Shown here in pieces: positions 2,049-57,266 of a DNA stretch of 64,000 bases (the stretch's first letter is position 1; each line of letters starts with the position of its first letter). The notes beneath the pieces were generated by a model that did no database searches, was not told the origin of the DNA, and saw nothing but the letters and a program-made list of their open reading frames with translations. The stretch lies in the NCBI GenBank assembly GCA_964016885.1, contig OZ024756.1:4774001-4838000 (forward strand). The letters run 5' to 3'. This stretch comes from Eledone cirrhosa (taxonomy: Eukaryota). A program made the position numbers and the translations under genes.

Positions 2049-3262
<1,214 letters not shown>

Positions 3263-3902: not shown

Positions 3903-3958
3903 TATATATACATATAATATTATATATTATTATATAATAGTATATGTATATATATATA

Positions 3959-14000: not shown

Positions 14001-14200
14001 ATATCTTTATATAGTGTGTGGTACTGAGTTAAATATCTTTATATAGCGTGTGGTACTCAGTAAAATATCTTTATATAGTGTGTGGTACTGAGTTAAATAT
14101 CTTTATATAGTGTGTGGTACTGTGGTAAATATCTTTATATAGTGTGTGGTACTGTGGTAAATATCTTTATATAGTGTGTGGTACTGTGGTAAATATCTTT
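8074..14200 (+). repeat. 32-bp satellite array, block 1
   Basis: Head-to-tail TAGTGTGTGGTACTG(T/A)G(T/G)TAAATATCTTTATA; GGTAC recurs every 32 bp, with occasional 31-bp units. Confidence 0.99.
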
Positions 14201-15311
14201 AAGGCTACGGCACCTCTACGTATTCCTCACCGGACAACCGGTGTGGGCCTCGTTTGTGAGACGAACCTTTCCCAGACTCGTCTCACTCACCGAGCTGCAA
14301 TCCTGGGTCAAGCAAAGACCGAGAAAACTGGGCGCCTGGCACACCGAGTGTGCCCAGGCGCTCCCCGCCCTCTGGCAGGCGGATCCGGTTATCAGTGGAG
14401 ACTCCACCGCAATATTCTATAGAGGGCTGGTACGCAGCAGGTGCGACGACGCCCTCGGAGAAGCCCTAGACATGGAGGAGGACGAACTGGCCAGCCTGTT
14501 CGGTAGGACATTCAGCCCGGGACCTATGGACAACTTCCAGAAGTCCCTGGCCTGGCAGTGCTACCGAGGGGCTTTACCCGTTCGAGAATGGCTCTACAGA
14601 CACGGGCGCCCGGGTAGGGACCCCGCCAAAAAGATCTGTCCCAGATGCGTGTGCGACGAGGAAACCGTTGCACACGCATTGGTACACTGCTCGGGCGCAG
14701 CCGATCTGTGGGGCTATGTCGAACAACTGCTGTCAAGGGTGGGACCGATCCGGTTGACCACCGAGTCTATTGTAATGATCAAGCCGCCTCCCCCCTTCAA
14801 AGATGAAGCAGAGGCGGTGTTTCTGTGCGTAATAGCCATGGCGAAAGAGGTTGTATGGTGGACGCGTCTGAAAGGACTGAGGTCAGGCACCTTTCTCTCT
14901 GGCCAACAACTGGTCCGTTTCTTCCGATATCATTTCGGAAGAAGGATCAGGATGGAGAGAGAGGTGCTGCACCCCAGCCGTTTCTATGAAAGATGGGTGA
15001 AAGCGGCGAGAATGGCCCGTGTGAATGGGCCTTCACTCTAGATCAGACTATAGGTGAGGAAGATGAAAGACCAAGGGAGCACCCCTTCTCTGTGCTCCTG
15101 AGGAGAAGGGTTGCACAATTTTTTCGGGGGTGTGTGCGACCCCCCAAGGCGCCTCCTCTCTATTGAGGATTTTGTTAAAAATTTTATTTTTTGTTATATC
15201 TTATTTTATTTTTATATTTTGTTATTGCCTCCTCCTTATTGAGGACGCCTTGTTTTGTAAACTCCCCCCTTTGTACTTGTCCCACTTTTGATGCCCTAGT
15301 GGCAAATAAAA
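14201..15311 (+). mobile_element. Tx1-like non-LTR retrotransposon copy 1 (5'-truncated, ~1.1 kb)
   Basis: ORF2 C-terminus with CCHC motif and a premature TAG at 15039-15041, then 3' UTR ending GGCAAATAAAA fused directly to copy 2. Confidence 0.95.
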
Positions 15312-18300
15312 ATGGGCGTGGCCTGGGCTCAACTTGGAAGCAAGCAATGCTTCTAAATGACCTCAGGTCACAACGTATAGATGTGATGGTTATTTGCGAG
15401 GCCCGGATCAGCAACGTGCGACAGCTGGCCCCCACCTTTGATGACTTTGAGATGCACGCATCTCTCTGTCAGCCCGGAGGTGGGAGTGGAGTTGTCGTTC
15501 TGCTGCAAAAACATCTGGGTCTCGCAACACAGATGGTACATTTGGACCCGGAGGGTCGACTAGTGGTTCTGGACCTTGGCAGTGGTAAAGGCGGAGCGTT
15601 TAGGTTGGTAGCCGCCTACGGCCCTTTCGGGTCAATGCGGCCGGACTTCTTCCATCGTCTGGAGACTTTTCTAGGGACGTCCCGCTCCTTGCTATTAGTG
15701 GGGGACTGGAATGGTATCCTAGATGCACGCTGGGACTACGTAGGGGCCTGCCCCGATAGAGAGGGGGGTAATAGCCTCAAAGGGTTAATCAGTCGATTTG
15801 ACCTGGCCGATAGATATCGACTAGATTTTCCGACTGCGCCAACCTGGACTTGGGCAAATCGTAGCGGATCATCTAGGTCGTACCTAGATAGGTTCTTAGT
15901 TAGAATTAAGGATAAGGACTTTTTAAGTTGTCCAAAAATGCGCATTGTTGGCTATTCAGACCACAAATTAGTGACCTGCATGGTCAACCTTGACAGAACT
16001 CATAGACAGGGCCCCGGTTACTGGAAGCTCAACTTGTCCTTGCCGGCAAGTAGAGCCTACAGGAATCGGATTAGTACGTTAGTTAAGGAACGGTTGACTG
16101 GAGCGATCGTCAACAGCAGGTGGTGGGTATCTCTAAAGAGAGAGATTAGAGTAGTCTCGATAGAATTTAGTAAGGTTCTAGCTGCGGATAGGAATAGGAA
16201 GGAAAGGGAGCTAATAGATAGAGTAGAAGAGGCAATTAGAAGCGGCGACGTGGCCAGAGTGCTAGCGTCGAGAACGGCTTTGAGCCAGTTTTTCGACGCG
16301 AAGCACGAAGGCTGCGTTGTCCGAAGTAAAATACGTGCTCTAGGGAACGAGGGGACCAAAGCTGTTAGCTGGGCCCGCGTGACAGAGGCCAACAGTGGAA
16401 CTAAATCCACCATCCGGTCTTTGCGAGACCTGGATGGACGGGCGATTCTTGAGCCTAAGCAGATGTGTGAGGCCTTTCAAAGGCACTTTGCCCGACTGTT
16501 CGGGAGGGGCGGGGAGCCGGTTGGGAACGTGGACTTCGGACCATACCTCGACGGCCTGCCGCGCCTCTCGGACAGGGAGGCGAAGTCCTGCGAGGAGCCG
16601 ATTTCGGCCGCTGAGATAGAGGACGTGCTGAGCCAATGCGGCAAACGCAAATCCCCGGGTCTCGATGGTCTTCCTTACGAATTATATCTAGCTATGCCGG
16701 ACTTGTTCCCCGATCTCCTCGAGGCGGTCTACTGCAACTGGCAACAGAACGGGAGAATTCCCTGTACTGTGACCAAGGGCGTAGTCACGCTAGTGAGGAA
16801 GGACGAGAACAAGGGGGACGAAATAAGTAACTTCAGGCCCATAACACTGCTAAATACAGAGTTACAGATTTTGGCCAAGGTGCTAGCAAAGAGGTTGGCG
16901 CTTGTCGTGGGCAACCTGGTGGGAGATGCGCAGACATGCGCTATCCCGTCCAGGTCCATCCATGACAACCTCCACCTCATGCGATACATCATAGAGAGGG
17001 TTGGGAACGAACCCGGCTTTGGTGGGGCTCTGATCAACTTGGATCAATCTAAGGCGTTCGATAGGGTCGACCATGGTTACCTGGATGCGGTGCTAGCGGC
17101 GGCAGGCTTCGGACCCGTTTTCAGGGGCTGGATCACTGCTATGCACAGCAGCCGCATCTGCTCTAGGGTCAAGGTGAACGGCTACCTCTCGGAGCCGTTC
17201 AAAATCGCGCGGTCCATCCGACAAGGGTGCCTTCTCTCCTCCCTTCTGTATGTGTTGACTCTCGAGCCACTACTGCGGAAGTTGGAGTTGTTGCAGGGCA
17301 TCCCTTTGGAACCGGGATTGCGGAAAGCGGTGTCGGCCTACGCCGATGACGTGACAGTAATGGTGTCGACGGCCTCCGAAATCGAGGCGGTCGGCACCTT
17401 ACTGGAGGAGTACGAAAAGTTCACAGGGGCTAAGCTGAACCGGGACAAGTCGATCGGTTTGCAACTCGGCACGTGGAGGGGCAGACCGATGCCCTCCGAT
17501 AGCGTCGTCGGACGCTGGACGGAGGGCCCGGTGAAGTTGCTCGGGGTCTGGTTCGGACCGGACCTCCAGGTGGAGAAAAACTGGGCGGAGGTTACGAACA
17601 GGGTGTTTGCACTGACCCAGAAGTGGGCCAGTTGCAAACTATCCCTGAAAGGTCGGGCGGAGGTGGCGAACACCTACATAGCGTCCGTCATCTACTACCG
17701 CCTGACCGTAGTGCCCTGCCCAAGGGAAACCCTCACCAAGATGGAGCGCGCGCTCTTCCAATTCCTTTGGAAGAGGCGGGCTCCTATGGTGAGGAGATCC
17801 ATCTGCTGTCAACACCCTTCGAAAGGAGGGCTGGGGATGCCGTGGCTAATGATGCGTAAACACGCATTAAGGCTACGGCACCTCTACGTATTCCTCACCG
17901 GACAACCGGTGTGGGCCTCGTTTGTGAGACGAACCTTTCCCAGACTCGTCTCACTCACCGAGCTGCAATCCTGGGTCAAGCAAAGACCGAGAAAACTGGG
18001 CGCCTGGCACACTGAGTGTGCCCAGGCGCTCACCGCCCTCTGGCAGGCGGATACGGTTATCAGTGGAGACTCCACCGCAACATTCTATAGAGGGCTGGTA
18101 CGCAGCAGGTGCCACGACGCCCTCGGAGAAGCCCTAGACATGGAGGAGGACGAACTGGCCAGCCTGTTCGGTAGGACATTCAGCCCGGGACCTATGGGCA
18201 ACTTCCAGAAGTCCCTGGCCTGGCAGTGCTACCGAGGGGATTTACCCGTTCGAGAAAGGCTCTACAGACACGGGCGCCCGGGTAGGGACCCCGCCAAAAA

Positions 18301-18721
18301 GATCTGTCCCAGATGCGTGTGCGACGAGGAGACCGTTGCACACGCATTAGTACACTGCTCGGGCGTAGCCGATCTGTGGGGCTATGTCGAACAACTGCTG
18401 TCAAGGGTGGGACCGATCCGGTTGACCACCGAGTCTATTGTAATGATCAAGCCGCCTCCCCCCTTCAAAGATGAAGCAGAGGCGGTGTTTCTGTGCGTAA
18501 TAGCCATGGCGAAAGAGGTTGTATGGTGGACGCGTCTGAAAGGACTGAGGTCGGGCACCTTTCTCTCTGGCCAACAACTGGTCCGTTTCTTCCGATATCA
18601 TTTCGGAAGAAGGATCAGGATGGAGAGAGAGGTGCTGCACCCCAGCCGTTTCTATGAAAGATGGGTGAAAGTGGCGAGAATGGCCCGTGTGAATGGGCCT
18701 TCACTCTACATCAGACTATAG
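15311..18721 (+). pseudogene. ORF2 (APE-RT-CCHC) lacking its native start, with QGCPLS changed to QGCLLS
   Basis: The track ORF 15191..18721 is chimeric: its first ~40 codons are copy-1 3' UTR; the remainder is ORF2 missing ~9 N-terminal residues. Confidence 0.85.
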
Positions 18722-18982
18722 GTGAGGAAGATGAAAGACCAAGGGAGCACCCCTTCTCTGTGCTCCTGAGGAGAAGGGTTGCACACTTTTTTCGGGGGTG
18801 TGTGCGACCCCCCAAGGCGCCTCCTCTCTATTGAGGATTTTGTTAAAAATCTTATTTTTTGTTATATCTTATTTTATTTTTATATTTTGTTATTGCCTCC
18901 TCCTTATTGAGGACGCCTTTTTGTGTAAACTCCCCCTTTGTACTTGTCCCACTTTTGATGCCCTAGTGGCAAATAAAAGAAA
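15311..18982 (+). mobile_element. Tx1-like non-LTR retrotransposon copy 2 (truncated just inside the ORF2 N-terminus)
   Basis: Begins at the (N)ARGLG endonuclease motif; open to TAG at 18721; 3' UTR ends AAATAAAAGAAA+CC then satellite TATCTTT. Confidence 0.96.
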
Positions 18983-18984
18983 CC

Positions 18985-21900
18985 TATCTTTATATAGTGT
19001 GTGGTACTGTGTTAAATATCTTTATATAGTGTGTGGTACTGTGGTAAATATATTTATATAGTGTGTGGTACTGTGTTAAATATCTTTATATAGTGTGTGG
19101 TACTGTGGTAAATATCTTTATATAGAGTGTGGTACTGAGTTAAATATCTTTATATAGTGTGTGGTACTGTGGTAAATATCTTTATATAGAGTGTGGTACT
19201 GAGTTAAATATCTTTATATAGTGTGTGGTACTTAGTAAAATATCTTTATATAGTGTGTGGTACTGAGTTAAATATCTTTATATAGTGTGTGGTACTGTGG
19301 TAAATATCTTTATATAGTGTGTGGTACTGTGGTAAATATCTTTATATAGTGTGTGGTACTGAGTTAAATATCTTTATATAGTGTGTGGTACTCAGTAAAA
19401 TATCTTTATATAGTGTGTGGTACTGAGTTAAATATCTTTATATAGTGTGTGGTACTGAGTTAAATATCTTTATATAGTGTGTGGTACTGTGGTAAATATC
19501 TTTATATAGTGTGTAGTATTGTGGTAAATATCTTTATTTAGTGTGTGGTACTGTGGTAAATATCTTTATATAGTGTGAGGTACTGTGTTAAATATCTTTA
19601 TATAGTGTGTGGTACTGTGTTAAATATCTTTATATAGTGTGTGGTACTGTGTTAAATATCTTTATATAGTGTGTGGCACTGTGTTAAATATCTTTATATA
19701 GTGTGTGGTACTGTGGCAAATATCTTTATATAGTGTGTGGTACTGTGGTAATTATCTTTATATAGTGTGTGGTACTGTGTTAAATATCTTTATATAGTGT
19801 GTGGTACTGTGTTAAATATCTTTATATAGTGTGTGGTACTGAGTTAAATATCTTTATATAGTGTGTGGTACTGTGTTAAATATCTTTATATAGTGTGTGG
19901 TACTGTGTTAAATATCTTTATATAGTGTGTGGTACTGTGTTAAATATATTTATATAGTGTGTGGTACTGTGGTAAATATCTTTATATAGTGTGTGGTACT
20001 GTGTTAAATATCTTTATATAGTGTGTGGTACTGAGTTAAATATCTTTATATAGTGTGTGGTACTGTGGTAAATATCTTTATGTAGTGTGTGGTACTGAGT
20101 TAAATATCTTTATATAGTGTGTGGTACTGTGGTAAATATCTTTATATAGTGTGTGGTACTGAGTTAAATATCTTTATATAGTGTGTGGTACTCAGTAAAA
20201 TATCTTTATATAGTGTGTGGTACTGAGTTAAATATCTTTATATAGTGTGTGGTACTGTGGTAAATATCTTTATATAGTGTGTGGTACTGTGGTAAATATC
20301 TTTATATAGTGTGTGGTACTGAGTTAAATATCTTTATAAAGTGTGTGGTACTGTGTTAAATATCTTTATATAGTGTGTGGTACTGTGGTAAATATCTTTA
20401 TAAAGTGTGTGGTACTGTGGTAAATATCTTTATATAGTGTGTGGTACTGTGGTAAATATCTTTATATAGTGTGTGGTACTGAGTTAAATATCTTTATATA
20501 GTGTGTGGTACTGAGTTAAATATCTTTATATAGTGTGTGGTACTGTGGTAAATATCTTTATATAGTGTGTGGTACTGAGTTAAATATCTTTATATAGTGT
20601 GTGGTACTTAGTAAAATATCTTTATATAGTGTGTGTTACTGAGTTAAATATCTTTATATAGTGAGTGGTACTGTGGTAAATATCTTTATATAGTTTGTGG
20701 TACTGTGTTAAATATCTTTATATAGTGTGTGGTACCGAGTTAAATATCTTTATATAGTGTGTGGTACTGTGGTAATTATCTTTATATAGTGTGTGGTACT
20801 CAGTTAAGTATCTTTATATAGTGTGTGGTACTGTGGTAAATATCTTTATATAGTGTGTGGTACTGTGTTAAATATCTTTATATAGTGTGTGGTACTGTGG
20901 TAAATATCTTTATATAGTGTGTGGTACTGTGGTAAATATCTTTATATAGTGTGTGGTACTGTGTTAAATATCTTTATATAGTGTGTGGTACTGTGTTAAA
21001 TATCTTTATATAGTGTGTGGTACTGTGGTAAACATTTTTATATAGTGTGTGGTACTGAGTTACATATCTTTATATAGTGTGTGGTACTTAGTAAAATATC
21101 TTTATATAGTGTGTGGTACTGAGTTAAATATCTTTATATAGTGTGTGGTACTGAGTTAAATATCTTTATATAGTGTGTGGTACTGTGTTAAATATCTTTA
21201 TATAGTGTGTGGTACTGTGGTAAATATCTTTATATAGTGTGTGGTACTGTGGTAAATATCTTTATATAGTGTGTGGTACTGTGGTAAATATCTTTGTAGA
21301 GTGTGTGGTACTGTGTTAAATATCTTTATATAGTGTGTGGTACTGAGTTAAATATCTTTACATAGTGTGTGGTACTGTGTTAAGTATCTTTATATAGTGT
21401 GTGGTACTGAATTAAATATCTTTATATAGTGTGTGGTACTGAGTTAAATATCTTTATATAGTGTGTGGTACTGTCGTAAATATCTTTATATAGTGTGTGG
21501 TACTGTGTTAAATATCTTTATATAGTGTGTGGTACTGAGTTAAATATCTTTATATAGTGTGTGGTACTGTGTTAACATCTTTATATAGTGTGTGGTACTG
21601 AGTCAAATATCTTTATATAGTGTGTGGTACTGTGTTAAATATCTTTATATAGTGTGTGGTACTGAGTTAGATATCTTTATATAGTGTGTGGTACTGTGTT
21701 AAATATCTTTATATAGTGTGTGGTACTGTGTTAATATCTTTATATAGTGTGTGGTACTGTGTTAAATATCTTTATATAGTGTGTGGTACTGAGTTAAATA
21801 TCTTTATATAGTGTGTGGTACTGTGTTAATATCTTTATATAGTGTGTGGTACTGTGTTAAATATCTTTATATAGTGTGTGGTACTGAGTTAAATATCTTT

Positions 21901-22710
21901 ATATAGTGTGTGGTATTGTGTTAATATCTTTATATAGTGTGTGGTACTGTGTTAAATATCTTTATATAGTGTGTGGTACTGTGTTAAATATCTTTATATA
22001 GTGTGTGGAACTGTGTTAAATATCTTTATATAGTGTGTGGTACTGTGGTAAATATCTTTATATAGTGTGTGGTACTGTGTTAAATATCTTTATATAGTGT
22101 GTGGTACTGTGTTAAATATCTTTATATAGTGTGTGGTACTGTGGTAAATATCTTTATACAGTGTGTGGTACTGTGGTAAATATATGTATATAGTGTGTGG
22201 TACTGTGGTAAATATCTTTATATAGTGTGTGGTACTGTGGTAAATATCTTTATATAGTGTGTGGTACTGTGGTAAATATCTTTATATAGTGTGTGGTACT
22301 GTGGTAAATATCTTTATATAGTGTGTGGTACTCAGTTAAGTATCTTTATATAGTGTGTGGTATTGTGGTAAATATCTTTATATAGTGTGTGGTACTGTGG
22401 TAAATATCTATATATAGTGTGTGGTACTGAGTTAAATATCTTTATATAGTGTGTGGTACTGTGGTAAATATCTTTATATAGTGTGTGGTACTGAGTTAAA
22501 CATCTTTATATAGTGTGTGGTACTCAGTAAAATATCTTTATATAGTGTGTGGTACTGAGTTAAATATCTTTATATAGTGTGTGGTACTGTGGTAAATATC
22601 TTTATATAGTGTGTGGTACTGTGTTAAATATCTTTATATAGTGTGTGGTACTGAGTTAAATATCTTTATATGGTGTGTGGTACTGTGGTAATTATCTTTA
22701 TATAGTGTGT
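18985..22710 (+). repeat. 32-bp satellite array, block 2
   Basis: Same unit and orientation as block 1. Confidence 0.99.
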
Positions 22711-24495
22711 TCAAAATCGCGCGGTCCATCCGACAAGGGTGCCCTCTCTCCTCCCTTCTGTATGTGTTGACTCTCGAGCCACTACTGCGGAAGTTGGAGT
22801 TGTTGCAGGGCATCCCTTTGGAACCGGGATTGCGGAAAGCGGTGTCGGCCTACGCCGATGACGTGACAGTAATGGTGTCGACGGCCTCCGAAATCGAGGC
22901 GGTCGGCACCTTACTGGAGGAGTACGAAAAGTTCACAGGGGCTAAGCTGAACCGGGACAAGTCGATCGGTTTGCAACTCGGCACGTGGAGGGGCAGACCG
23001 ATGCCCTCCGATAGCGTCGTCGGACGCTGGACGGAGGGCCCGGTGAAGTTGCTCGGGGTCTGGTTCGGACCGGACCTCCAGGTGGAGAAAAACTGGGCGG
23101 GGGTTACGAACAGAGTGTTTGCACTGACCCAGAAGTGGGCCAGTTGCAAACTATCCCTGAAAGGTCGGGCGGAGGCGGCGAACACCTACATAGCGTCCGT
23201 CATCTACTACCGCCTGACCGTAGTGCCCTGCCCAAGGGAAACCCTCACCAAGATGGAGCGCGCGCTCTTCCAATTCCTTTGGAAGAGGCGGGCTCCTATG
23301 GTGAGGAGATCCATCTGCTGTCAACACCCTTCGAAAGGAGGGCTGGGGATGCCGTGGCTAATGATGCGTAAACACGCATTAAGGCTACGGCACCTCTACG
23401 TATTCCTCACCGGACAACCGGTGTGGGCCTCGTTTGTGAGACGAACCTTTCCCAGACTCGTCTCACTCACCGAGCTGCAATCCTGGGTCAAGCAAAGACC
23501 GAGAAAACTGGGCGCCTGGCACACTGAGTGTGCCCAGGCGCTCACCGCCCTCTGGCAGGCGGATCCGGTTATCAGTGGAGACTCCACCGCAACATTCTAT
23601 AGAGGGCTGGTACGCAGCAGGTGCGACGACGCCCTCGGAGAAGCCCTAAACATGGAGGAGGACGAACTGGCCAGCCTGTTCGGTAGGACATTCAGCCCGG
23701 GACCTATGGACAACTTCCAGAAGTCCCTGGCCTGGCAGTGCTACCGAGGGGCTTTACCCGTTCGAGAAAGGCTCTACAGAGACGGGCGCCCGGGTAGGGA
23801 CCCCGCCAAAAAGATCTGTCCCAGATGCGTGTGCGACGAGGAAACCGTTGCACACGCATTAGTACACTGCTCGGGCGTAGCCGATCTGTGGGGCTATGTC
23901 GAACAACTGCTGTCAAGGGTGGGACCGATCCGGTTGACCACCGAGTCTATTGTAATGATCAAGCCGCCTCCCCCCTTCAAAGATGAAGCAGAGGCGGTGT
24001 TTCTGTGCGTAATAGCCATGGCGAAAGAGGTTGTATGGTGGACGCGTCTGAAAGGACTGAGGTCGGGCACCTTTCTCTCTGGCCAACAACTGGTCCGTTT
24101 CTTCCGATATCATTTCGGAAGAAGGATCAGGATGGAGAGAGAGGTGCTGCACCCCAGCCGTTTCTATGAAAGATGGGTGAAAGTGGCGAGAATGGCCCGT
24201 GTGAATGGGCCTTCACTCTACATCAGACTATAGGTGAGGAAGATGAAAGACCAAGGGAGCACCCCTTCTCTGTGCTCCTGAGGAGAAGGGTTGCACACTT
24301 TTTTCGGGGGTGTGTGCGACCCCCCAAGGCGCCTCCTCTCTATTGAGGATTTTGTTAAAAATTTTATTTTTTGTTATATCTTATTTTATTTTTATATTTT
24401 GTTATTGCCTCCTCCTTATTGAGGACGCCTTTTTGTGTAAACTCCCCCCTTTGTACTTGTCCCACTTTTGATGCCCTAGTGGCAAATAAAAGAAA
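22711..24495 (+). mobile_element. Tx1-like non-LTR retrotransposon copy 3 (5'-truncated within RT, ~1.8 kb)
   Basis: Starts at FKIARSIRQGCPLS; open to 24233; flanked by a 16-18-bp target-site duplication TATCTTTATATAGTGT(GT). Confidence 0.96.
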
Positions 24496-24497
24496 TA

Positions 24498-27400
24498 TAT
24501 CTTTATATAGTGTGTGGTACTCAGTTAAGTATCTTTATATAGTGTGTGGTACTGTGGTAAATATCTTTATATAGTGTGTGGTACTGTGTTAAATATCTTT
24601 ATATAGTGTGTGGTACTGTGGTAAATATCTTTATATAGTGTGTGGTACTGTAGTAAATATCTTTATATAGTGTGTGGTACTGTGTTAAATATCTTTATAT
24701 AGTGTGTGGTACTGTGTTAAATATCTTTATATAGTGTGTGGTACTGAGTTAAATATCTTTATATAGTGTGTGGTACTGTGTTAAATATCTTTATATAGTG
24801 TGTGGTACTGTGTTAAATATCTTTATATAGTGTGTGGTACTGTGTTAAATATATTTATATAGTGTGTGGTACTGTGGTAAATATCTTTATATAGTGTGTG
24901 GTACTGTGTTAAATATCTTTATATAGTGTGTGGTACTGAGTTAAATATCTTTATATAGTGTGTGGTACTGTGGTAAATATCTTTATATAGTGTGTGGTAC
25001 TGAGTTAAATATCTTTATATAGTGTGTGGTACTGTGGTAAATATCTGTATATAGTGTGTGGTACTGAGTTAAATATCTTTATATAGTGTGTGGTACTCAG
25101 TAAAATATCTTTATATAGTGTGTGGTACTGAGTTAAATATCTTTATATAGTGTGTGGTACTGTGGTAAATATCTTTATATTGTGTGTGGTACTGTGGTAA
25201 ATATCTTTATATAGTGTGTGGTACTGTGGTAAATATCTTTATATAGTGTGTGGTACTGAGTTAAATATCTTTATATAGTGTGTGGTACTGTGTTAAATAT
25301 CTTTATATAGTGTGTGGTACTGTGGTAAATATCTTTATAAAGTGTGTGGTACTGTGGTAAATATCTTTATATAGTGTGTGGTACTGAGTTAAATACTTTA
25401 TATAGTGTGTGGTACTGAGTTAAATATCTTTATATAGTGTGTGGTACTGAGTTAAATATCTTTATATAGTGTGTGGTACTGTGGTAAATATCTTTATATA
25501 GTGTGTGGTACTGAGTTAAATATCTGTATATAGTGTGTGGTACTTAGTAAAATATCTTTATATAGTGTGTTGTACTGAGTTAAATATCTTTATATAGTGT
25601 GTGGTACTGTGGTAAATATCTTTATATAGTGTGTGGTACTGTGTTAAATATCTTTATATAGTGTGTGGTACTGAGTTAAATATCTTTATATAGTGTGTGG
25701 TACTGTGGTAATTATCTTTATGTAGTGTGTGGTACTCAGTTAAGTATCTTTATATAGTGTGTGGTACTGTGGTAAATATCTTTATATAGTGTGTGGTACT
25801 GTGTTAAATATCTTTATATAGTGTGTGGTACTGTGGTAAATATCTTTATATAGTGTGTGGTACTGTGGTAAATATCTTTATATAGTGTGTCGTACTGTAT
25901 TAAATATCTTTATATAGTGTGTGGTACTGTGTTAAATATCTTTATATAGTGTGTGGTACTGTGGTAAACATCTTTATATAGTGTGTGGTACTGTGGTAAA
26001 TATCTTTATACAGTGTGTGGTACTGTGGTAAATATATGTATATAGTGTGTGGTACTGTGGTAAATATTTTTATATAGTGTGTGGTACTGTGGTAAATATC
26101 TTTATATAGTGTGTGGTACTGTGGTAAATATCTTTATATAGTGTGTGGTACTGTGGTAAATATCTTTATATAGTGTGTGGTACTCAGTTAAGTATCTTTA
26201 TATAGTGTGTGGTACTGTGGTAAATATCTTTATATAGTGTGTGGTACTGTGGTAAATATCTTTATATAGTGTGTGGTACTGAGTTAAATATCTTTATATA
26301 GTGTGTGGTACTGTGGTAAATATCTTTATATAGTGTGTGGTACTGAGTTAAATATCTTTATATAGTGTGTGGTACTCAGTAAAATATCTTTATATAGTGT
26401 GTGGTACTGAGTTAAATATCTTTATATAGTGTGTGGTACTGTGGTAAATATCTTTATATAGTGTGTGGTACTGTGTTAAATATCTTTATATAGTGTGTGG
26501 TACTGAGTTAAATATCTTTATATAGTGTGTGGTACTGTGGTAATTATCTTTATATAGTGTGTGGTACTGTGTTAAATATCTTTATATAGTGTGTGGTACT
26601 GTGTTAAATATCTTTATATAGTGTGTGGTACTGTGTTAAATATATTTATATAGTGTGTGGTACTGTGGTAAATATCTTTATATAGTGTGTGGTACTGTGT
26701 TAAATATCTTTATATAGTGTGTGGTACTGAGTTAAATATCTTTATATAGTGTGTGGTACTGTGGTAAATATCTTTATATAGTGTGTGGTACTGAGTTAAA
26801 TATCTTTATATAGTGTGTGGTACTGTGTTAATATCTTTATATAGTGTGTGGTACTGAGTTAAATATCTTTATATAGTGTGTGGTACTGTGTTAAATATCT
26901 TTATATAGTGTGTGGTACTGAGTTAAATATCTTTATATAGTGTGTGGTACTGTGTTAAATATCTTTATATAGTGTGTGGTACTGTGTTAATATCTTTATA
27001 TAGTGTGTGGTACTGTGTTAAATATCTTTATATAGTGTGTGGTACTGAGTTAAATATCTTTATATAGTGTGTGGTACTGTGTTAATATCTTTATATAGTG
27101 TGTGGTACTGTGTTAAATATCTTTATATAGTGTGTGGTACTGTGTTAAATATCTTTATATAGTGTGTGGTACTGTGTTAAATATCTTTATATAGTGTGTG
27201 ATACTGTGGTAAATATCTTTATATAGTGTGTGGTACTGTGTTAAATATCTTTATATAGTGTGTGGTACTGTGTTAAATATCTTTATATAGTGTGTGGTAC
27301 TGTGGTAAATATCTTTATACAGTGTGTGGTACTGTGGTAAATATATGTATATAGTGTGTGGTACTGTGGTAAATATCTTTATATAGTGTGTGGTACTGTG

Positions 27401-27760
27401 GTAAATATCTTTATATAGTGTGTGGTACTGTGGTAAATATCTATATATAGTGTGTGGTACTGAGTTAAATATCTTTATATAGTGTGTGGTACTGTGGTAA
27501 ATATCTTTTTATAGTGTGTGGTATTGAGTTAAACATCTTTATATAGTGTGTGGTACTCAGTAAAATATCTTTATATAGTGTGTGGTACTGAGTTAAATAT
27601 CTTTATATAGTGTGTGGTACTGTGGTAAATATCTTTATATAGTGTGTGGTACTGTGGTAAATATCTTTATATAGTGTGTGGTACTGTGTTAAATATCTTT
27701 ATATAGTGTGTGGTACTGTGTTAAATATCTTTATATAGTGTGTGGTACTGAGTTAAATAT
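24498..27760 (+). repeat. 32-bp satellite array, block 3
   Basis: Same unit and orientation. Confidence 0.99.
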
Positions 27761-27967
27761 GTGGGTCCCCCCTGCGTCGGGCCCATTAACCGCGTCCTCC
27801 TAAAAAACTATCCCACCCCTCCCCCAAACACCCACACAACTGTAAGCTCCCCAACCACACAATACACTGATGCCCCCACACTTCCACAAACCACCACCCC
27901 ACCCAACAACCCATCCCCCACCCTAATGGAAATTGTGCAGCCCGATACCCGGGACGCAGAGAGGTAA
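27761..27967 (+). pseudogene. C-terminal Pro/Thr-rich fragment of putative ORF1
   Basis: Open frame ending in TAA directly upstream of, and in frame with, ORF2; conserved in copies 4, 6, 7 and 10. Confidence 0.6.
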
Positions 27968-27991
27968 GTGCCTTTTCTCTTCACCACCAAC

Positions 27992-30900
27992 ATGGCTATG
28001 CTAAGAGTAGGCTGTTTAAATGCGCGTGGCCTGGGCTCAACTTGGAAGCAAGCAATGCTTCTAAATGACCTCAGGTCACAACGTATAGATGTGATAGTTA
28101 TTTGCGAGGCCCGGATCAGCAACGTGCGACAGCTGGCCCCCACCTTTGATGACTTTGAGATGCACGCATCTCTCTGTCAGCCCGGAGGTGGGGGTGGAGT
28201 TGTCGTTCTGCTGCAAAAACATCTGGGTCTCGCAACACAGATGGTACATTTGGACCCGGAGGGTCGACTAGTGGTTCTGGACCTTGGCAGTGGTAAAGGC
28301 GGAGCGTTTAGGTTGGTAGCCGCCTACGGCCCTTTCGGGTCAATGCGGCCGGACTTCTTCCATCGTCTGGAGACTTTTCTAGGGACGTCCCGCTCCTTGC
28401 TATTAGTGGGGGACTGGAATGGTATCCTAGATGCACGCTGGGACTACGTAGGGGCCTGCCCCGATAGAGAGGGGTGTAATAGCCTCAAAGGGTTAATCGG
28501 TCGATTTGACCTGGCCGATAGATATCGACTAGATTTTCCGACTGCGCCAACCTGGACTTGGGCAAATCGTAGCGGATCATCTAGGTCGTACCTAGATAGG
28601 TTCTTAGTTAGAATTAAGGATAAGGACTTTTTAAGTTGTCCAAAAATGCGCATGGTTGGCTATTCAGACCACAAATTAGTGACCTGCATGGTCAACCTTG
28701 ACAGAACTCATAGACAGGGCCCCGGTTACTGGAAGCTCAACTTGTCCTTGCCGGCAAGTAGAGCCTACAAGAATCGGATTAGTACGTTAGTTAAGGAACG
28801 GTTGACTGGAGCGATCGTCAACAGCAGGTGGTGGGTATCTCTAAAGAGAGAGATTAGAGTAGTCTCGATAGAATTTAGTAAGGTTCTAGCTGCGGATAGG
28901 AATAGGAAGGAAAGGGAGCTAATAGATAGAGTAGAAGAGGCAATTAGAAGCGGCGACGTGGCCAGAGTGCTAGCGTCGAGAACGGCTTTGAGCCAGTTTT
29001 TCGACGCGAAGCACGAAGGCTGCGTTGTCCGAAGTAAAATACATGCTCTAGGGAACGAGGGGACCAAAGCTGTTAGCTGGGCCCGCGTGACAGAGGCCAA
29101 CAGTGGAACTAAATCCACCATCCGGTCTTTGCGAGACCTGGATGGACGGGCGATTCTTGAGCCTAAGCAGATGTGTGAGGCCTTTCAAAGGCACTTTGCC
29201 CGACTGTTCGGGAGGGGCGGGGAGCCGGTTGGGAACGTGGATTACGGTCCATACCTCGACGGCCTGCCGCGCCTCTCGGACAGGGAGGCGAAGTCCTGCG
29301 AGGAGCCGATTTCGGCCGCTGAGATAGAGGACGTGCTGAGCCAATGCGGCAAACGCAAATCCCCGGGTCTCGATGGTCTTCCTTACGAATTATATCTAGC
29401 TATGCCGGACTTGTTCCCCGATCTCCTCGAGGCGGTCTACTGCAACTGGCAACAGAACGGGAGAATTCCCTGTACTGTGACCAAGGGCGTAGTCACGCTA
29501 GTGAGGAAGGACGAGAACAAGGGGGACGAAATAAGTAACTTCAGGCCCATAACACTGCTAAATACAGAGTTACAGATTTTGGCCAAGGTGCTAGCAAAGA
29601 GGTTGGCGCTTGTCGTGGGCAACCTGGTGGGAGATGCACAGACATGCGCTATCCCGTCCAGGTCCATCCATGACAACCTCCACCTCATGCGATACATCAT
29701 AGAGAGGGTTGGGAACGAACCCGGCTTTGGTGGGGCTCTGATCAACTTGGATCAATCTAAGGCGTTCGATAGGGTCGACCATGGTTACCTGGATGCGGTG
29801 CTAGCGGCGGCAGGCTTCGGACCCGTTTTCAGGGACTGGATCACTGCTATGCACAGCAGCCGCATCTGCTCTAGGGTCAAGGTGAACGGCTACCTCTCGG
29901 AGCCGTTCAAAATCGCGCGGTCCATCCGACAAGGGTGCCCTCTCTCCTCCCTTCTGTATGTGTTTACTCTCGAGCCACTACTGCGGAAGTTGGAGTTGTT
30001 GCAGGGCATCCCTTTGGAACCGGGATTGCGGAAAGCGGTGTCGGCCTACGCCGATGACGTGACAGTAATGGTGTCGACGGCCTCCGAAATCGAGGCGGTC
30101 GGCACCTTACTGGAGGAGTACGAAAAGTTCACAGGGGCTAAGCTGAACCGGGACAAGTCGATCGGTTTGCAACTCGGCACGTGGAGGGGCAGACCGATGC
30201 CCTCCGATAGCGTCGTCGGACGCTGGACGGAGGGCCCGGTGAAGTTGCTCGGGGTCTGGTTCGGACCGGACCTCCAGGTGGAGAAAAACTGGGCGGAGGT
30301 TACGAACAGGGTGTTTGCACTGACCCAGAAGTGGGCCAGTTGCAAACTATCCCTGAAAGGTCGGGCGGAGGTGGCGAACACCTACATAGCGTCCGTCATC
30401 TACTACCGCCTGACCGTAGTGCCCTGCCCAAGGGAAACCCTCACCAAGATGGAGCGCGCGCTCTTCCAATTCCTTTGGAAGAGGCGGGCTCCTATGGTGA
30501 GGAGATCCATCTGCTGTCAACACCCTTCGAAAGGAGGGCTGGGGATGCCGTGGCTAATGATGCGTAAACACGCATTAAGGCTACGGCACCTCTACGTATT
30601 CCTCACCGGACAACCGGTGTGGGCCTCGTTTGTGAGACGAACCTTTCCCAGACTCGTCTCACTCACCGAGCTGCAATCCTATGTCAAGCAAAGACCGAGA
30701 AAACTGGGCGCCTGGCACACTGTGTGTGCCCAGGCGCTCACCGCCCTCTGGCAGGCGGATACGGTTATCAGTGGAGACTCCACCGCAACATTCTATAGAG
30801 GGCTGGTACGCAGCAGGTGCCACGACGCACTCGGAGAAGCCCTAGACATGGAGGAGGACGAACTGGCCAGCCTGTTCGGTAGGACATTCAGCCCGGGACC

Positions 30901-31429
30901 TATGGACAACTTCCAGAAGTCCCTGGCCTGGCAGTGCTACCGAGGGGCTTTACCCGTTCGAGAAAGGCTCTACAGACACGGGCGCCCGGGTAGGGACCCC
31001 GCCAAAAAGATCTGTCCCAGATGCGTGTGCGACGAGGAAACCGTTGCACACGCATTAGTACACTGCTCGGGCGTAGCCGATCTGTGGGGCTATGTCGAAC
31101 AACTGCTGTCAAGGGTGGGACCGATCCGGTTGGCCACCGAGTCTATTGTAATGATCAAGCCGCCTCCCCCCTTCAAAGATGAAGCAGAGGAGGTGTTTCT
31201 GTGCGTAATAGCCATGGCGAAAGAGGTTGTATGGTGGACGCGTCTGAAAGGACTGAGGTCGGGCACCTTTCTCTCTGGCCAACAACTGGTCCGTTTCTTC
31301 CGATATCATTTCGGAAGAAGGATCAGGATGGAGAGAGAGGTGCTGCACCCCAGCCGTTTCTATGAAAGATGGGTGAAAGTGGCGAGAATGGCCCGTGTGA
31401 ATGGGCCTTCACTCTACATCAGACTATAG
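27992..31429 (+). CDS. Non-LTR retrotransposon ORF2: APE endonuclease, reverse transcriptase, CCHC zinc knuckle (L1/Tx1 clade), ~1145 aa
   Basis: EN motifs CLNARG, ICEAR, GDWN, YLDRF, SDH; linker GPGYWKLN; RT motifs KSPGLDG, NFRPITLLN, LDQSKAFDRV, RQGCPLS, YADD; KGGLG; CPRC-X8-H-X4-C. First ATG in context ACCAACATGG. Confidence 0.95.
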   Translation: MAMLRVGCLNARGLGSTWKQAMLLNDLRSQRIDVIVICEARISNVRQLAPTFDDFEMHASLCQPGGGGGVVVLLQKHLGLATQMVHLDPEGRLVVLDLGSGKGGAFRLVAAYGPFGSMRPDFFHRLETFLGTSRSLLLVGDWNGILDARWDYVGACPDREGCNSLKGLIGRFDLADRYRLDFPTAPTWTWANRSGSSRSYLDRFLVRIKDKDFLSCPKMRMVGYSDHKLVTCMVNLDRTHRQGPGYWKLNLSLPASRAYKNRISTLVKERLTGAIVNSRWWVSLKREIRVVSIEFSKVLAADRNRKERELIDRVEEAIRSGDVARVLASRTALSQFFDAKHEGCVVRSKIHALGNEGTKAVSWARVTEANSGTKSTIRSLRDLDGRAILEPKQMCEAFQRHFARLFGRGGEPVGNVDYGPYLDGLPRLSDREAKSCEEPISAAEIEDVLSQCGKRKSPGLDGLPYELYLAMPDLFPDLLEAVYCNWQQNGRIPCTVTKGVVTLVRKDENKGDEISNFRPITLLNTELQILAKVLAKRLALVVGNLVGDAQTCAIPSRSIHDNLHLMRYIIERVGNEPGFGGALINLDQSKAFDRVDHGYLDAVLAAAGFGPVFRDWITAMHSSRICSRVKVNGYLSEPFKIARSIRQGCPLSSLLYVFTLEPLLRKLELLQGIPLEPGLRKAVSAYADDVTVMVSTASEIEAVGTLLEEYEKFTGAKLNRDKSIGLQLGTWRGRPMPSDSVVGRWTEGPVKLLGVWFGPDLQVEKNWAEVTNRVFALTQKWASCKLSLKGRAEVANTYIASVIYYRLTVVPCPRETLTKMERALFQFLWKRRAPMVRRSICCQHPSKGGLGMPWLMMRKHALRLRHLYVFLTGQPVWASFVRRTFPRLVSLTELQSYVKQRPRKLGAWHTVCAQALTALWQADTVISGDSTATFYRGLVRSRCHDALGEALDMEEDELASLFGRTFSPGPMDNFQKSLAWQCYRGALPVRERLYRHGRPGRDPAKKICPRCVCDEETVAHALVHCSGVADLWGYVEQLLSRVGPIRLATESIVMIKPPPPFKDEAEEVFLCVIAMAKEVVWWTRLKGLRSGTFLSGQQLVRFFRYHFGRRIRMEREVLHPSRFYERWVKVARMARVNGPSLYIRL

Positions 31430-31680
31430 GTGAGGAAGATGAAAGACCAAGGGAGCACCCCTTCTCTGTGCTCCTGAGGAGAAGGGTTGCACACTTTTTT
31501 CTGGGGTGTGTGCGACCCCCCAAGGCGCCTCCTCTCTATTGAGGATTTTGTTAAAAATTTTATTTTTTGTTATATCTTATTTTATTTTTATATTTTGTTA
31601 TTGCCTCCTCCTTATTGAGGACGCCTTTTTGTGTAAACTCCCCCCTTTGTACTTGTCCCACTTTTGATGCCCTAGTGGCA

Positions 31681-31686
31681 AATAAA
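31681..31686 (+). promoter_or_regulatory. AATAAA polyadenylation-signal-like hexamer at the element 3' terminus (present in all copies with a visible 3' end)
   Basis: GGCAAATAAAAGAAA terminates each copy; no long poly(A) tail follows. Confidence 0.5.
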
Positions 31687-31693
31687 AGAAATA

Positions 31694-34600
31694 TATCTTT
31701 ATATAGTGTGTGGTACTGTGTTAAATATCTTTATATAGTGTGTGGTACTGTGTTAAATATCTTTATATAGTGTGTGGTACTGTGTTAAATATATTTATAT
31801 AGTGTGTGGTACTGTGGTAAATATCTTTATATAGTGTGTGGTACTGTGTTAAATATCTTTATATAGTGTGTGGTACTGAGTTAAATATCTTTATATAGTG
31901 TGTGGTACTGTGGTAAATATCTTTATATAGTGTGTGGTACTGAGTTAAATATCTTTATATAGTGTGTGGTACTGTGGTAAATATCTGTATATAGTGTGTG
32001 GTACTGAGTTAAATATCTTTATATAGTGTGTGGTACTCAGTAAAATATCTTTATATAGTGTGTGGTACTGAGTTAAATATCTTTATATAGTGTGTGGTAC
32101 TGTGGTAAATATCTTTATATAGTGTGTGGTACTGTGGTAAATATCTTTATATAGTGTGTGGTACTGTGGTAAATATCTTTATATAGTGTGTGGTACTGAG
32201 TTAAATATCTTTATATAGTGTGTGGTACTGTGTTAAATATCTTTATATAGTGTGTGGTACTGTGGTAAATATCTTTATATAGTGTGTGGTACTGTGGTAA
32301 ATATCTTTATATAGTGTGTGGTACTGAGTTAAATATCTTTATATAGTGTGTGGTACTGAGTTAAATATCTTTATATAGTGTGTGGTACTGAGTTAAATAT
32401 CTTTATATAGTGTGTGGTACTGTGGTAAATATCTTTATATAGTGTGTGGTACTGAGTTAAATATCTGTATATAGTGTGTGGTACTTAGTAAAATATCTTT
32501 ATATAGTGTGTGGTACTGAGTTAAATATCTTTATATAGTGTGTGGTACTGTGGTAAATATCTTTATATAGTGTGTGGTACTGTGTTAAATATCTTTATAT
32601 AGTGTGTGGTACTGAGTTAAATATCTTTATATAGTGTGTGGTACTGTGGTAATTATCTTTATGTAGTGTGTGGTACTCAGTTAAGTATCTTTATATAGTG
32701 TGTGGTACTGTGGTAAATATCTTTATATAGTGTGTGGTACTGTGTTAAATATCTTTATATAGTGTGTGGTACTGTGGTAAATATCTTTATATAGTGTGTG
32801 GTACTGTGGTAAATATCTTTATATAGTGTGTGGTACTGTGTTAAATATCTTTATATAGTGTGTGGTACTGTGTTAAATATCTTTATATAGTGTGTGGTAC
32901 TGTGGTAAACATCTTTATATAGTGTGTGGTACTGTGGTAAATATCTTTATACAGTGTGTGGTACTGTGGTAAATATATGTATATAGTGTGTGGTACTGTG
33001 GTAAATATCTTTATATAGTGTGTGGTACTGTGGTAAATATCTTTATATAGTGTGTGGTACTGTGGTAAATATCTTTATATAGTGTGTGGTACTGTGGTAA
33101 ATATCTTTATATAGTGTGTGGTACTCAGTTAAATATCTTTATATAGTGTGTGGTACTGAGTTAAATATCTTTATATAGTGTGTGGTACTGTGGTAAATAT
33201 CTTTATATAGTGTGTGGTACTGAGTTAAATATCTTTATATAGTGTGTGGTACTGTGGTAAATATCTGTATATAGTGTGTGGTACTGAGTTAAATATCTTT
33301 ATATAGTGTGTGGTACTCAGTAAAATATCTTTATATAGTGTGTGGTACTGAGTTAAATATCTTTATATAGTGTGTGGTACTGTGGTAAATATCTTTATAT
33401 AGTGTGTGGTACTGTGGTAAATATCTTTATATAGTGTGTGGTACTGTGGTAAATATCTTTATATAGTGTGTGGTACTGAGTTAAATATCTTTATATAGTG
33501 TGTGGTACTGTGTTAAATATCTTTATATAGTGTGTGGTACTGTGGTAAATATCTTTATAAAGTGTGTGGTACTGTGGTAAATATCTTTATATAGTGTGTG
33601 GTACTGTGGTAAATATCTTTATATAGTGTGTGGTACTGAGTTAAATATCTTTATATAGTGTGTGGTACTGAGTTAAATATCTTTATATAGTGTGTGGTAC
33701 AGAGTTAAATATCTTTATATAGTGTGTGGTACTGTGGTAAATATCTTTATATAGTGTGTGGTACTGAGTTAAATATCTGTATATAGTGTGTGGTACTTAG
33801 TAAAATATCTTTATATAGTGTGTGGTACTGAGTTAAATATCTTTATATAGTGTGTGGTACTGTGGTAAATATCTTTATATAGTGTGTGGTACTGTGTTAA
33901 ATATCTTTATATAGTGTGTGGTACTGAGTTAAATATCTTTATATAGTGTGTGGTACTGTGGTAATTATCTTTATGTAGTGTGTGGTACTCAGTTAAGTAT
34001 CTTTATATAGTGTGTGGTACTGTGGTAAATATCTTTATATAGTGTGTGGTACTGTGTTAAATATCTTTATATAGTGTGTGGTACTGTGGTAAATATCTTT
34101 ATATAGTGTGTGGTACTGTGGTAAATATCTTTATATAGTGTGTGGTACTGTGTTAAATATCTTTATATAGTGTGTGGTACTGTGTTAAATATCTTTATAT
34201 AGTGTGTGGTACTGTGGTAAACATCTTTATATAGTGTGTGGTACTGTGGTAAATATCTTTATACAGTGTGTGGTACTGTGGTAAATATATGTATATAGTG
34301 TGTGGTACTGTGGTAAATATCTTTATATAGTGTGTGGTACTGTGGTAAATATCTTTATATAGTGTGTGGTACTGTGGTAAATATCTTTATATAGTGTGTG
34401 GTACTGTGGTAAATATCTTTATATAGTGTGTGGTACTCAGTTAAGTATCTTTATATAGCGTGTGGTACTGTGGTAAATATCTTTATATAGTGTGTGGTAC
34501 TGTGGTAAATATCTGTATATAGTGTGTGGTACTGAGTTAAATATCTTTATATAGTGTGTGGTACTGTGGTAAATATCTTTATATAGTGTGTGGTACTGGG

Positions 34601-37600
34601 TTAAATATCTTTATATAGTGTGTGGTACTCAGTAAAATATCTTTATATAGTGTGTGGTACTGTGGTAAATATCTTTATACAGTGTGTGGTACTGTGGTAA
34701 ATATCTTTATATAGTGTGTGGTACTGTGTTAAATATCTTTATATAGTGTGTGGTACTGAGTTAAATATCTTTATATAGTGTGTGGTACTGTGGTAATTAT
34801 CTTTATATAGTGTGTGGTACTGTGTTAAATATGTTTATATAGTGTGTGGTACTGTGTTAAATATCTTTATATAGTGTGTGGTACTGTGGTAAATATCTTT
34901 ATATAGTGTGTGGTACTGTGTTAAATATCTTTATATAGTGTGTGGTACTGAGTTAAATATCTTTATATAGTGTGTGGTACTGTGGTAAATATCTTTATAT
35001 AGTGTGTGGTACTGAGTTAAATACCTTTATATAGTGTGTGGTACTGTGGTAAATATCTTTATATAGTGTGTGGTACTGAGTTAAATATCTTTATATAGTG
35101 TGTGGTACTCAGTAAAATATCTTTATATAGTGTGTGGTACTGAGTTAAATATCTTTATATAGTGTGTGGTACTGAGTTAAATATCTTTATATAGTGTGTG
35201 GTACTGTGGTAAATATCTTTATATAGTGTGTAGTATTGTGGTAAATATCTTTATTTAGTGTGTGGTACTGTGGTAAATATCTTTATATAGTGTGAGGTAC
35301 TGTGTTAAATATCTTTATATAGTGTGTGGTACTGTGTTAAATATCTTTATATAGTGTGTGGTACTGTGTTAAATATCTTTATATAGTGTGTGGCACTGTG
35401 TTAAATATCTTTATATAGTGTGTGGTACTGTGGCAAATATCTTTATATAGTGTGTGGTACTGTGGTAATTATCTTTATATAGTGTGTGGTACTGTGTTAA
35501 ATATCTTTATATAGTGTGTGGTACTGTGTTAAATATCTTTATATAGTGTGTGGTACTGAGTTAAATATCTTTATATAGTGTGTGGTACTGTGGTAAATAT
35601 CTTTATATAGTGTGTGGTACTGTGTTAAATATCTTTATATAGTGTGTGGTACTGTGTTAAATATATTTATATAGTGTGTGGTACTGTGGTAAATATCTTT
35701 ATATAGTGTGTGGTACTGTGTTAAATATCTTTATATAGTGTGTGGTACTGAGTTAAATATCTTTATATAGTGTGTGGTACTGTGGTAAATATCTTTATGT
35801 AGTGTGTGGTACTGAGTTAAATATCTTTATATAGTGTGTGGTACTGTGTTAAATATCTTTATATAGTGTGTGGTACTGAGTTAAATATCTTTATATAGTG
35901 TGTGGTACTCAGTAAAATATCTTTATATAGTGTGTGGTACTGAGTTAAATATCTTTATATAGTGTGTGGTAAATATCTTTATATAGTGTGTGGTACTGTG
36001 GTAAATATCTTTATATAGTGTGTGGTACTGAGTTAAATATCTTTATAAAGTGTGTGGTACTGTGTTAAATATCTTTATATAGTGTGTGGTACTGTGGTAA
36101 ATATCTTTATAAAGTGTGTGGTACTTAGTAAAATATCTTTATATAGTGTGTGTTACTGAGTTAAATATCTTTATATAGTGAGTGGTACTGTGGTAAATAT
36201 CTTTATATAGTGAGTGGTACTGTGGTAAATATCTTTATATAGTTTGTGGTACTGTGTTAAATATCTTTATATAGTGTGTGGTACCGAGTTAAATATCTTT
36301 ATATAGTGTGTGGTACTGTGGTAATTATCTTTATATAGTGTGTGGTACTCAGTTAAGTATCTTTATATAGTGTGTGGTACTGTGGTAAATATCTTTATAT
36401 AGTGTGTGGTACTGTGTTAAATATCTTTATATAGTGTGTGGTACTGTGGTAAATATCTTTATATAGTGTGTGGTACTGTGGTAAATATCTTTATATAGTG
36501 TGTGGTACTGTGTTAAATATCTTTATATAGTGTGTGGTACTGTGTTAAATATCTTTATATAGTGTGTGGTACTGTGGTAAACATTTTTATATAGTGTGTG
36601 GTACTGAGTTACATATCTTTATATAGTGTGTGGTACTTAGTAAAATATCTTTATATAGTGTGTGGTACTGAGTTAAATATCTTTATATAGTGTGTGGTAC
36701 TGAGTTAAATATCTTTATATAGTGTGTGGTACTGTGGTAAATATCTTTGTAGAGTGTGTGGTACTGTGTTAAATATCTTTATATAGTGTGTGGTACTGAG
36801 TTAAATATCTTTACATAGTGTGTGGTACTGTGTTAAGTATCTTTATATAGTGTGTGGTACTGAATTAAATATCTTTATATAGTGTGTGGTACTGAGTTAA
36901 ATATCTTTATATAGTGTGTGGTACTGTCGTAAATATCTTTATATAGTGTGTGGTACTGTGTTAAATATCTTTATATAGTGTGTGGTACTGAGTTAAATAT
37001 CTTTATATAGTGTGTGGTACTGTGTTAACATCTTTATATAGTGTGTGGTACTGAGTCAAATATCTTTATATAGTGTGTGGTACTGTGTTAAATATCTTTA
37101 TATAGTGTGTGGTACTGAGTTAGATATCTTTATATAGTGTGTGGTACTGTGTTAAATATCTTTATATAGTGTGTGGTACTGTGTTAATATCTTTATATAG
37201 TGTGTGGTACTGTGTTAAATATCTTTATATAGTGTGTGGTATCGAGTTAAATATCTTTATATAGTGTGTGGTACTGTGTTAATATCTTTATATAGTGTGT
37301 GGTACTGTGTTAAATATCTTTATATAGTGTGTGGTACTGAGTTAAATATCTTTATATAGTGTGTGGTATTGTGTTAATATCTTTATATAGTGTGTGGTAC
37401 TGTGTTAAATATCTTTATATAGTGTGTGGTACTGTGTTAAATATCTTTATATAGTGTGTGGAACTGTGTTAAATATCTTTATATAGTGTGTGGTACTGTG
37501 GTAAATATCTTTATATAGTGTGTGGTACTGTGTTAAATATCTTTATATAGTGTGTGGTACTGTGTTAAATATCTTTATATAGTGTGTGGTACTGTGGTAA

Positions 37601-38163
37601 ATATCTTTATACAGTGTGTGGTACTGTGGTAAATATATGTATATAGTGTGTGGTACTGTGGTAAATATCTTTATATAGTGTGTGGTACTGTGGTAAATAT
37701 CTTTATATAGTGTGTGGTACTGTGGTAAATATCTTTATATAGTGTGTGGTACTGTGGTAAATATCTTTATATAGTGTGTGGTACTCAGTTAAGTATCTTT
37801 ATATAGTGTGTGGTATTGTGGTAAATATCTTTATATAGTGTGTGGTACTGTGGTAAATATCTATATATAGTGTGTGGTACTGAGTTAAATATCTTTATAT
37901 AGTGTGTGGTACTGTGGTAAATATCTTTATATAGTGTGTGGTACTGAGTTAAACATCTTTATATAGTGTGTGGTACTCAGTAAAATATCTTTATATAGTG
38001 TGTGGTACTGAGTTAAATATCTTTATATAGTGTGTGGTACTGTGGTAAATATCTTTATATAGTGTGTGGTACTGTGTTAAATATCTTTATATAGTGTGTG
38101 GTACTGAGTTAAATATCTTTATATGGTGTGTGGTACTGTGGTAATTATCTTTATATAGTGTGT
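31694..38163 (+). repeat. 32-bp satellite array, block 4
   Basis: Same unit and orientation. Confidence 0.99.
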
Positions 38164-39948: not shown

Positions 39949-39950
39949 TA

Positions 39951-42900: not shown

Positions 42901-43213
42901 TAGTGTGTGGTACTGAGTTAAATATCTTTATATAGTGTGTGGTACTGTGGTAAATATCTTTTTATAGTGTGTGGTATTGAGTTAAACATCTTTATATAGT
43001 GTGTGGTACTCAGTAAAATATCTTTATATAGTGTGTGGTACTGAGTTAAATATCTTTATATAGTGTGTGGTACTGTGGTAAATATCTTTATATAGTGTGT
43101 GGTACTGTGGTAAATATCTTTATATAGTGTGTGGTACTGTGTTAAATATCTTTATATAGTGTGTGGTACTGTGTTAAATATCTTTATATAGTGTGTGGTA
43201 CTGAGTTAAATAT
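39951..43213 (+). repeat. 32-bp satellite array, block 5 (duplicate of block 3)
   Basis: Same length and rare variants as block 3 (e.g. TGTCGTACTGTATT, GTGATACT). Confidence 0.99.
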
Positions 43214-47144: not shown

Positions 47145-47146
47145 TA

Positions 47147-54630: not shown

Positions 54631-54642
54631 CCTATCTTTATG

Positions 54643-55947: not shown

Positions 55948-55959
55948 CCTATCTTTATG

Positions 55960-57264: not shown

Positions 57265-57266
57265 TA

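Follow-up and report, generated by a model that had tools for sequence, protein, structure and literature searches.

A 5'-truncated LINE with a 16-18-bp target-site duplication in a minisatellite of Eledone cirrhosa, a secondary target of a TATC-preferring family

Several described retrotransposons target microsatellites. The accessible parts of PMC4494074 and PMC3812793 assign the teleost elements Kibi and Koshi to (TC)n and (TTC)n, respectively, and crocodilian Tx1 families to (TTCC)n/(TTTC)n, and the legend of Fig. 3 in PMC4494074 also places satellites among Tx1 targets. For Tx1L of Xenopus laevis the L1-like APE endonuclease sets the target and is stringent for one Tx1D site, according to the sections seen of PMC1950540. 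In human L1, 5' truncation with short microhomology is standard and the length of target-site duplications (TSDs) peaks at 14-16 bp (PMC2912911, in part). For SART1Bm, target-like sequence downstream in the RNA was proposed to anneal to the nicked strand, and R1Bm is cited likewise (PMC7265360, in part). Recently active L1-Tx1 families are reported from Octopus vulgaris, with no targets given in the accessible part of that report (PMC13282606).

The LINE family analyzed here resembles Kibi, Koshi and the crocodilian Tx1 families in being an APE-type non-LTR element that prefers pyrimidine-rich microsatellites, as far as the accessible text of PMC4494074 and PMC3812793 describes them, but its target is (TATC)n, a repeat absent from that text, and a relaxed TATCT[A/T], minisatellites included. 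With Tx1L it shares an L1-like APE-type endonuclease and a target defined by sequence (PMC1950540). With human L1, as described in the parts seen of PMC2912911, it has in common two ORFs, an APE-RT-CCHC ORF2 and 5' truncation with microhomology, and truncated human L1 copies with short TSDs, like the 3 bp of copy 4 below, are also found there. Unlike human L1, the insertions carry no poly(A) tail, the target is another one and ORF1 has a single weak zinc knuckle. R1Bm and SART1Bm are R1-clade elements (PMC7265360, in part); for the present family we infer RNA-target pairing. No Tx1 element targeting TATC/GATA was found in the literature searched, with Repbase Reports, most subscription journals and supplements lying outside its scope; the supplements of PMC4494074 and PMC13282606 may name a (TATC)n-targeting family.

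Copy 3 and the minisatellite array

The window is the whole stretch of DNA analyzed (64,000 nucleotides; C17:4,774,001-4,838,000), while genome-wide counts cover the 3.0-Gb genome. The array, which runs past the window, amounts to ~32 kb of net repeat and is broken up by 10 LINE pieces of one family, all co-oriented. A 28-mer of the monomer was found to have 689 exact matches genome-wide, every one on the same strand. As all 689 lie in the window and the adjoining stretch, the 32-bp repeat is a single-locus minisatellite. The TATCTT motif is present once per monomer and on the + strand only, and the copies in the array therefore share phase and orientation. Positions 2159-2857 (+) hold, judging by its motifs, a probable degraded fragment of a Tc1/mariner-like transposase. 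The features of the array and of copy 3 are:

8074..64000, + strand: 32-bp minisatellite array, a single locus that continues past the window to ~67.1 kb
22685..22692, + strand: rare monomer variant GTGGTAAT in the left flank (17/900 monomers)
22693..22710, + strand: left copy of the duplication: 16 bp, extended by 2 bp (GT) of microhomology with the element
22709..24497, + strand: copy 3, a 5'-truncated LINE that corresponds to L003 (full-length, 5,715 bp) from position 3929 to its 3' end
22710..24233, + strand: open 3' part of ORF2 with the RT end (QGCPLS, YADD), thumb and C-terminal CCHC region
24485..24497, + strand: AATAAA signal, the fixed AAAGAAA end and TA, a dinucleotide derived from the element
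24498..24515, + strand: right copy of the duplication, the same 16-18 bp, directly after the ...AAAGAAA-TA end at 24497
24522..24529, + strand: rare monomer variant CAGTTAAG in the right flank (20/900 monomers)

Copy 3 is 99.7% identical to L003. A poly(A) tail is absent from its 3' end (24485-24497), despite the AATAAA just before the end. TATCTTTATATAGTGT occupies 22693-22708 and the element begins at 22709, with its first two bases, GT, also fitting the target. The sequence TATCTTTATATAGTGTGT was found both at 22693-22710 and at 24498-24515 as an exact repeat (18 of 18). The element's first two bases coincide with the final two of this sequence, and the length of the duplication is therefore given as 16-18 bp; two of the 18 bp duplicated are 5' microhomology. 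A preliminary description of this DNA had claimed a 16-18-bp TSD inside the satellite, preceded by a rare variant. Both claims were confirmed by the exact 18-bp repeat and by the frequencies of GTGGTAAT and, on the right side, CAGTTAAG. A 48-bp duplication was rejected, as it would need 6 mismatches.

The family is a candidate member of the Tx1 clade; its close homologues in homologue and cluster look-ups bore no clade name. In the full-length L003 an ORF1 of 593 aa lies upstream of a separate ORF2 of 1,145 aa. ORF1 gave a weak zf-CCHC hit, one zinc knuckle, below the Pfam cut-off (E 0.051). ORF2 matched Exo_endo_phos (PF03372, the N-terminal APE endonuclease) and RVT_1 (PF00078) above cut-off, and zf-RVT below its cut-off. 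The best PDB match of ORF2 was human L1 ORF2p (residues 8-857, E 1.7e-47), with R2 at 4.8e-18. The family thus has the features of APE-type non-LTR elements (L1 group): APE and RT in ORF2, a separate ORF1, a fixed 3' end, variable 5' truncation, TSDs of variable length and no LTRs. It is young, with ~2,000 exact 3' ends, many copies that are 99-100% identical and at least one site that is empty in other samples. With its youth and its preference for TATC, the family may lend itself to work on how specificity for short motifs arises in L1-like endonucleases.

Empty sites in the array

Three intact counterparts of the copy 3 target are present in the array as exact 40-mers:

13450..13489, + strand: intact paralogous empty site
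20769..20808, + strand: intact paralogous empty site
36318..36357, + strand: intact paralogous empty site, the third

The uninterrupted pair had been reported earlier at ~13450-13489 and ~20769-20808; both are exact, and the third is an addition. Six further intact pairs were slightly different. The empty-site support for copy 3 comes from paralogous sites only.

Uninterrupted GTGGTAAT monomers number 15, and the next monomer is CAGTTAAG in 9 and the common GTGTTAAA in 6, giving a likelihood ratio of ~27 for the rare partner CAGTTAAG (9/15 vs 20/900). Wherever CAGTTAAG-GTGGTAAA-GTGTTAAA stands intact in the monomer strings (9 cases), the monomer just before it is GTGGTAAT. Every junction within a tandem array can pass for a duplication, the length of which is defined only modulo 32 bp. 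The rare monomer variants are of methodological use here, in that they pin a duplication length otherwise hidden by the array.

The preliminary description had argued from the pair that is restored when the element is removed. The pair is indeed restored, but its existence elsewhere is a weak test as worded, because GTGGTAAT also precedes a common monomer: 198 of 897 random right partners (22%) passed. An exact-match statistic for the junction was uninformative, with 198/897 and 236/897 controls passing. It was replaced by ungapped mismatch counts between the rejoined flanks and intact array sites at four flank lengths (64-224 bp). With 160 bp per side, the best intact match to the rejoined copy 3 flanks had 3 mismatches in 320 bp. 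At most 3 mismatches were reached by 29 of 925 controls with the true left and any right flank, by 12 of 925 with any left and the true right flank, and by 4.4% of random-random combinations. Pass rates of controls were similar (2-7%) at flank lengths of 128 and 224 bp; 64 bp had no power and gave no support, as 520/973 controls passed. The within-array evidence for the copy 3 duplication is positive and of moderate strength (p ~0.01-0.04). Against it, the upstream context of copy 3 (~12 monomers) is more like GTGGTAAT-GTGTTAAA sites than GTGGTAAT-CAGTTAAG sites, except for the one at 13450.

Target preference and duplications of the family

Genome-wide, 1,971 exact 3' ends of the family were found. 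NN-TATCTA follows in 1,563 (79%) and NN-TATCTT in 62 (3%), 8 of them in the array; the rest are followed by other sequences. Compared to the stringency described for Tx1L in the accessible part of PMC1950540, the family is looser with respect to its target. The array holds 9 exact 3' ends, i.e., the 8 with NN-TATCTT and copy 5. With only 9 of 1,971 ends in the array, a satellite-specific element with the 32-bp repeat as primary target was rejected. We sampled 40 copies elsewhere, picked by identity to the 3' end of copy 3 and all located on C1/C2. Downstream of the fixed end, beyond two variable bases, 36 of these read TATCTAT, 3 TATATAT and 1 TATCTTT. At least three TATC units within 60 bp downstream were found for 25 of the 40, compared to the more than 20% of flanks with one repeat type that denotes microsatellite targeting in the accessible text of PMC4494074. 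The satellite monomer was found near none of the 40 outside the array. TATC repeats are where the family mostly inserts, and the satellite serves it as a minor, secondary target.

The same family was also observed in several unrelated TATCT minisatellites (L020, L027, L028, L035, L070, L076, L098, and L099), two of which hold two insertions each (L027/L028 and L098/L099). One TATC tract holds a head-to-tail stack of relatives, some older and some younger, with identities of 74-99% (L016, L013, L032, L022, and L025). Among the 3' ends genome-wide, the dinucleotide between element end and target is TA, CA, CT, TC or CC; it tracks subfamily age, with CT in more diverged copies. The full-length copies L020, L035, L064, and L101 have extra 5' TATC repeats that are not in the local target, which suggests that upstream target sequence was carried within the transcript.

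Duplications were analyzed at the TATCTT sites outside the array. All 54 were fetched and 53 analyzed; L109, with no alignment, was dropped. Exact duplications of at least 12 bp were found at 16 of the 53 sites, compared to 0.18% of 2,756 mismatched pairs. Thirty of the 53 had no exact duplication by the rule used, many being older subfamilies or full-length copies. In the young truncated subset (n = 23; at least 99% identical, 5'-truncated, >100 bp) the exact duplication was 11-19 bp in 15 copies and 7-8 bp in 2, with none in 6. A C preceded the target at 16 of the 20 sites with a duplication of at least 8 bp.

The copy L001 has the target TATCTTTAT, as in the satellite, but in unique DNA, with a 15-bp duplication and 6 bp of microhomology. 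Its empty allele was found in public contigs, one each from runs X2 and X3, with a single copy of the 15 bp. In both contigs the duplicated segment is followed directly by the far flank, and two bases differ. In a contig from X7 (same study, second sample), the match ends at the same base of L001. By the L001 empty allele, at a locus other than copy 3, the family does make such duplications.

Origin of the copy 3 junction and local recombination

The TSD of copy 3 is real, and it is an ordinary footprint of retrotransposition in a secondary target. What the window adds is that the satellite serves as a secondary target, together with the direct check of an empty allele for a TATC-preferring LINE. 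We are confident that copy 3 is a 5'-truncated LINE of a TATC-preferring family with a TATCTT-containing duplication of 16-18 bp, and that it most likely arose by target-primed reverse transcription (TPRT). TPRT fits copy 3 because of the APE endonuclease and RT, the 5' truncation and the fixed 3' end, and also because of the duplication lengths of the family at the 53 TATCTT sites and the L001 empty allele.

The endonuclease would nick the bottom strand at or within TATCT. The RNA would read through AATAAA into the TATC behind the parent copy and then pair with the freed primer, which would account for the lack of a poly(A) tail and for the dinucleotide being inherited. The dinucleotide is TA, whereas the two upstream bases of the target are AT at copy 3 and TC at L001, so it derives from the element. 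Reverse transcription would have halted after 1.8 kb, the top strand being cut 11-18 nt downstream and the ends joined via 2 bp of microhomology. If the RNA tail has TATCT in common with the target, the actual stagger could be only 11 nt. Copy 5 would stem from a later duplication of an ~11-kb block. Both the bottom-strand nick at TATCT and the priming aided by read-through are deduced from the sequence. It is conceivable, if somewhat short of probable, that (TATC)n is an undescribed target of a Tx1-type LINE whose endonuclease reads a short (C)TATCT, that minisatellites with the motif act as insertion sinks (at least 4 independent hits in one phase in the 32-kb array), and that the dinucleotide is an inherited tag of read-through priming. 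If true, the tag would allow insertion lineages to be followed.

The block concerned contains copies 3 and 4 (21260-32270) and is repeated at +15,453 with 8 differences, yielding copies 5 and 6; the cause is either unequal crossover in recent time or haplotypes joined during assembly. The duplicate of copy 3 is:

38162..39950, + strand: copy 5, identical to copy 3 over 1,789 bp

Copy 5 was rejected as a second insertion event, being identical to copy 3 and within the duplicated block.

If TPRT had deleted 16+32k bp of the target site, the result would resemble a duplication only through the repetition of the array. Junctions in the array are read modulo 32, and an existing pair arises with 22% of right partners drawn at random. 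However, the deletion would need to span exactly from one rare variant to another, GTGGTAAT stands before CAGTTAAG-GTGGTAAA-GTGTTAAA at every intact site (9/9), and the usual duplication of the family is 11-19 bp; we regard such a deletion as very unlikely. It is likewise highly improbable that copy 3 is a recombinant, with its flanks joined by unequal exchange or conversion, or its 5' part lost in a deletion at the 2-bp microhomology. The duplication of the ~11-kb block with few differences, the tandem 7a-7b-7c chimeras and the variants common to copies 3, 7a and 8 point in that direction, but one intact context fits both flanks and the 5' break point is found only in copy 3/5. Copy 3 also differs from dispersed copies at 3/1,300 nt, compared to 6-11 for its neighbours, although this is biased, the dispersed set having been picked by identity. 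That the junction is an artefact of assembling a repetitive array is hardly credible. Copies 3 and 5 show no difference in 1,789 bp, and the duplicate may be a false haplotype join, but this concerns the existence of copy 5 and not the junction, which has an anatomy normal for the family, and 8 differences separate the two blocks. TPRT accounts for how the copy 3 junction arose, not for the whole array. The earlier preference for TPRT over recombinational capture therefore holds for that junction but does not extend to the whole array, where recombination also acted (copy 5).

Junctions in the array may have been altered by recombination or conversion among local copies. Other insertions in the array do not show the length found at copy 3. 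Copy 4 has a 3-bp duplication (27758-27760 / 31694-31696) that is well supported by its empty-site context, with 1 mismatch in 320 bp and 8/928 and 13/928 controls passing. The 27-bp duplication of copy 7/8 was not supported in the ungapped context test. This test failed for copy 8 and for copy 1/2, where there are nearby indels or a compound structure. At three positions, local copies have variants in common that were seen in 0 of 39 comparison copies. Pieces 7a-7b-7c lie head-to-tail at 50598-57266, and 7b is chimeric, its 5' part being like 7c and its 3' part like 7a; 7c probably entered by insertion into the target remaining behind 7a. Copies 7a and 8 have one 5' junction in common and different 3' dinucleotides. 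At 14196-18984, copy 1 without its last 3' bases is fused to copy 2 via A-rich microhomology. Immediately upstream of copy 8, a single satellite monomer contains a 15-bp internal duplication (59947-59961).
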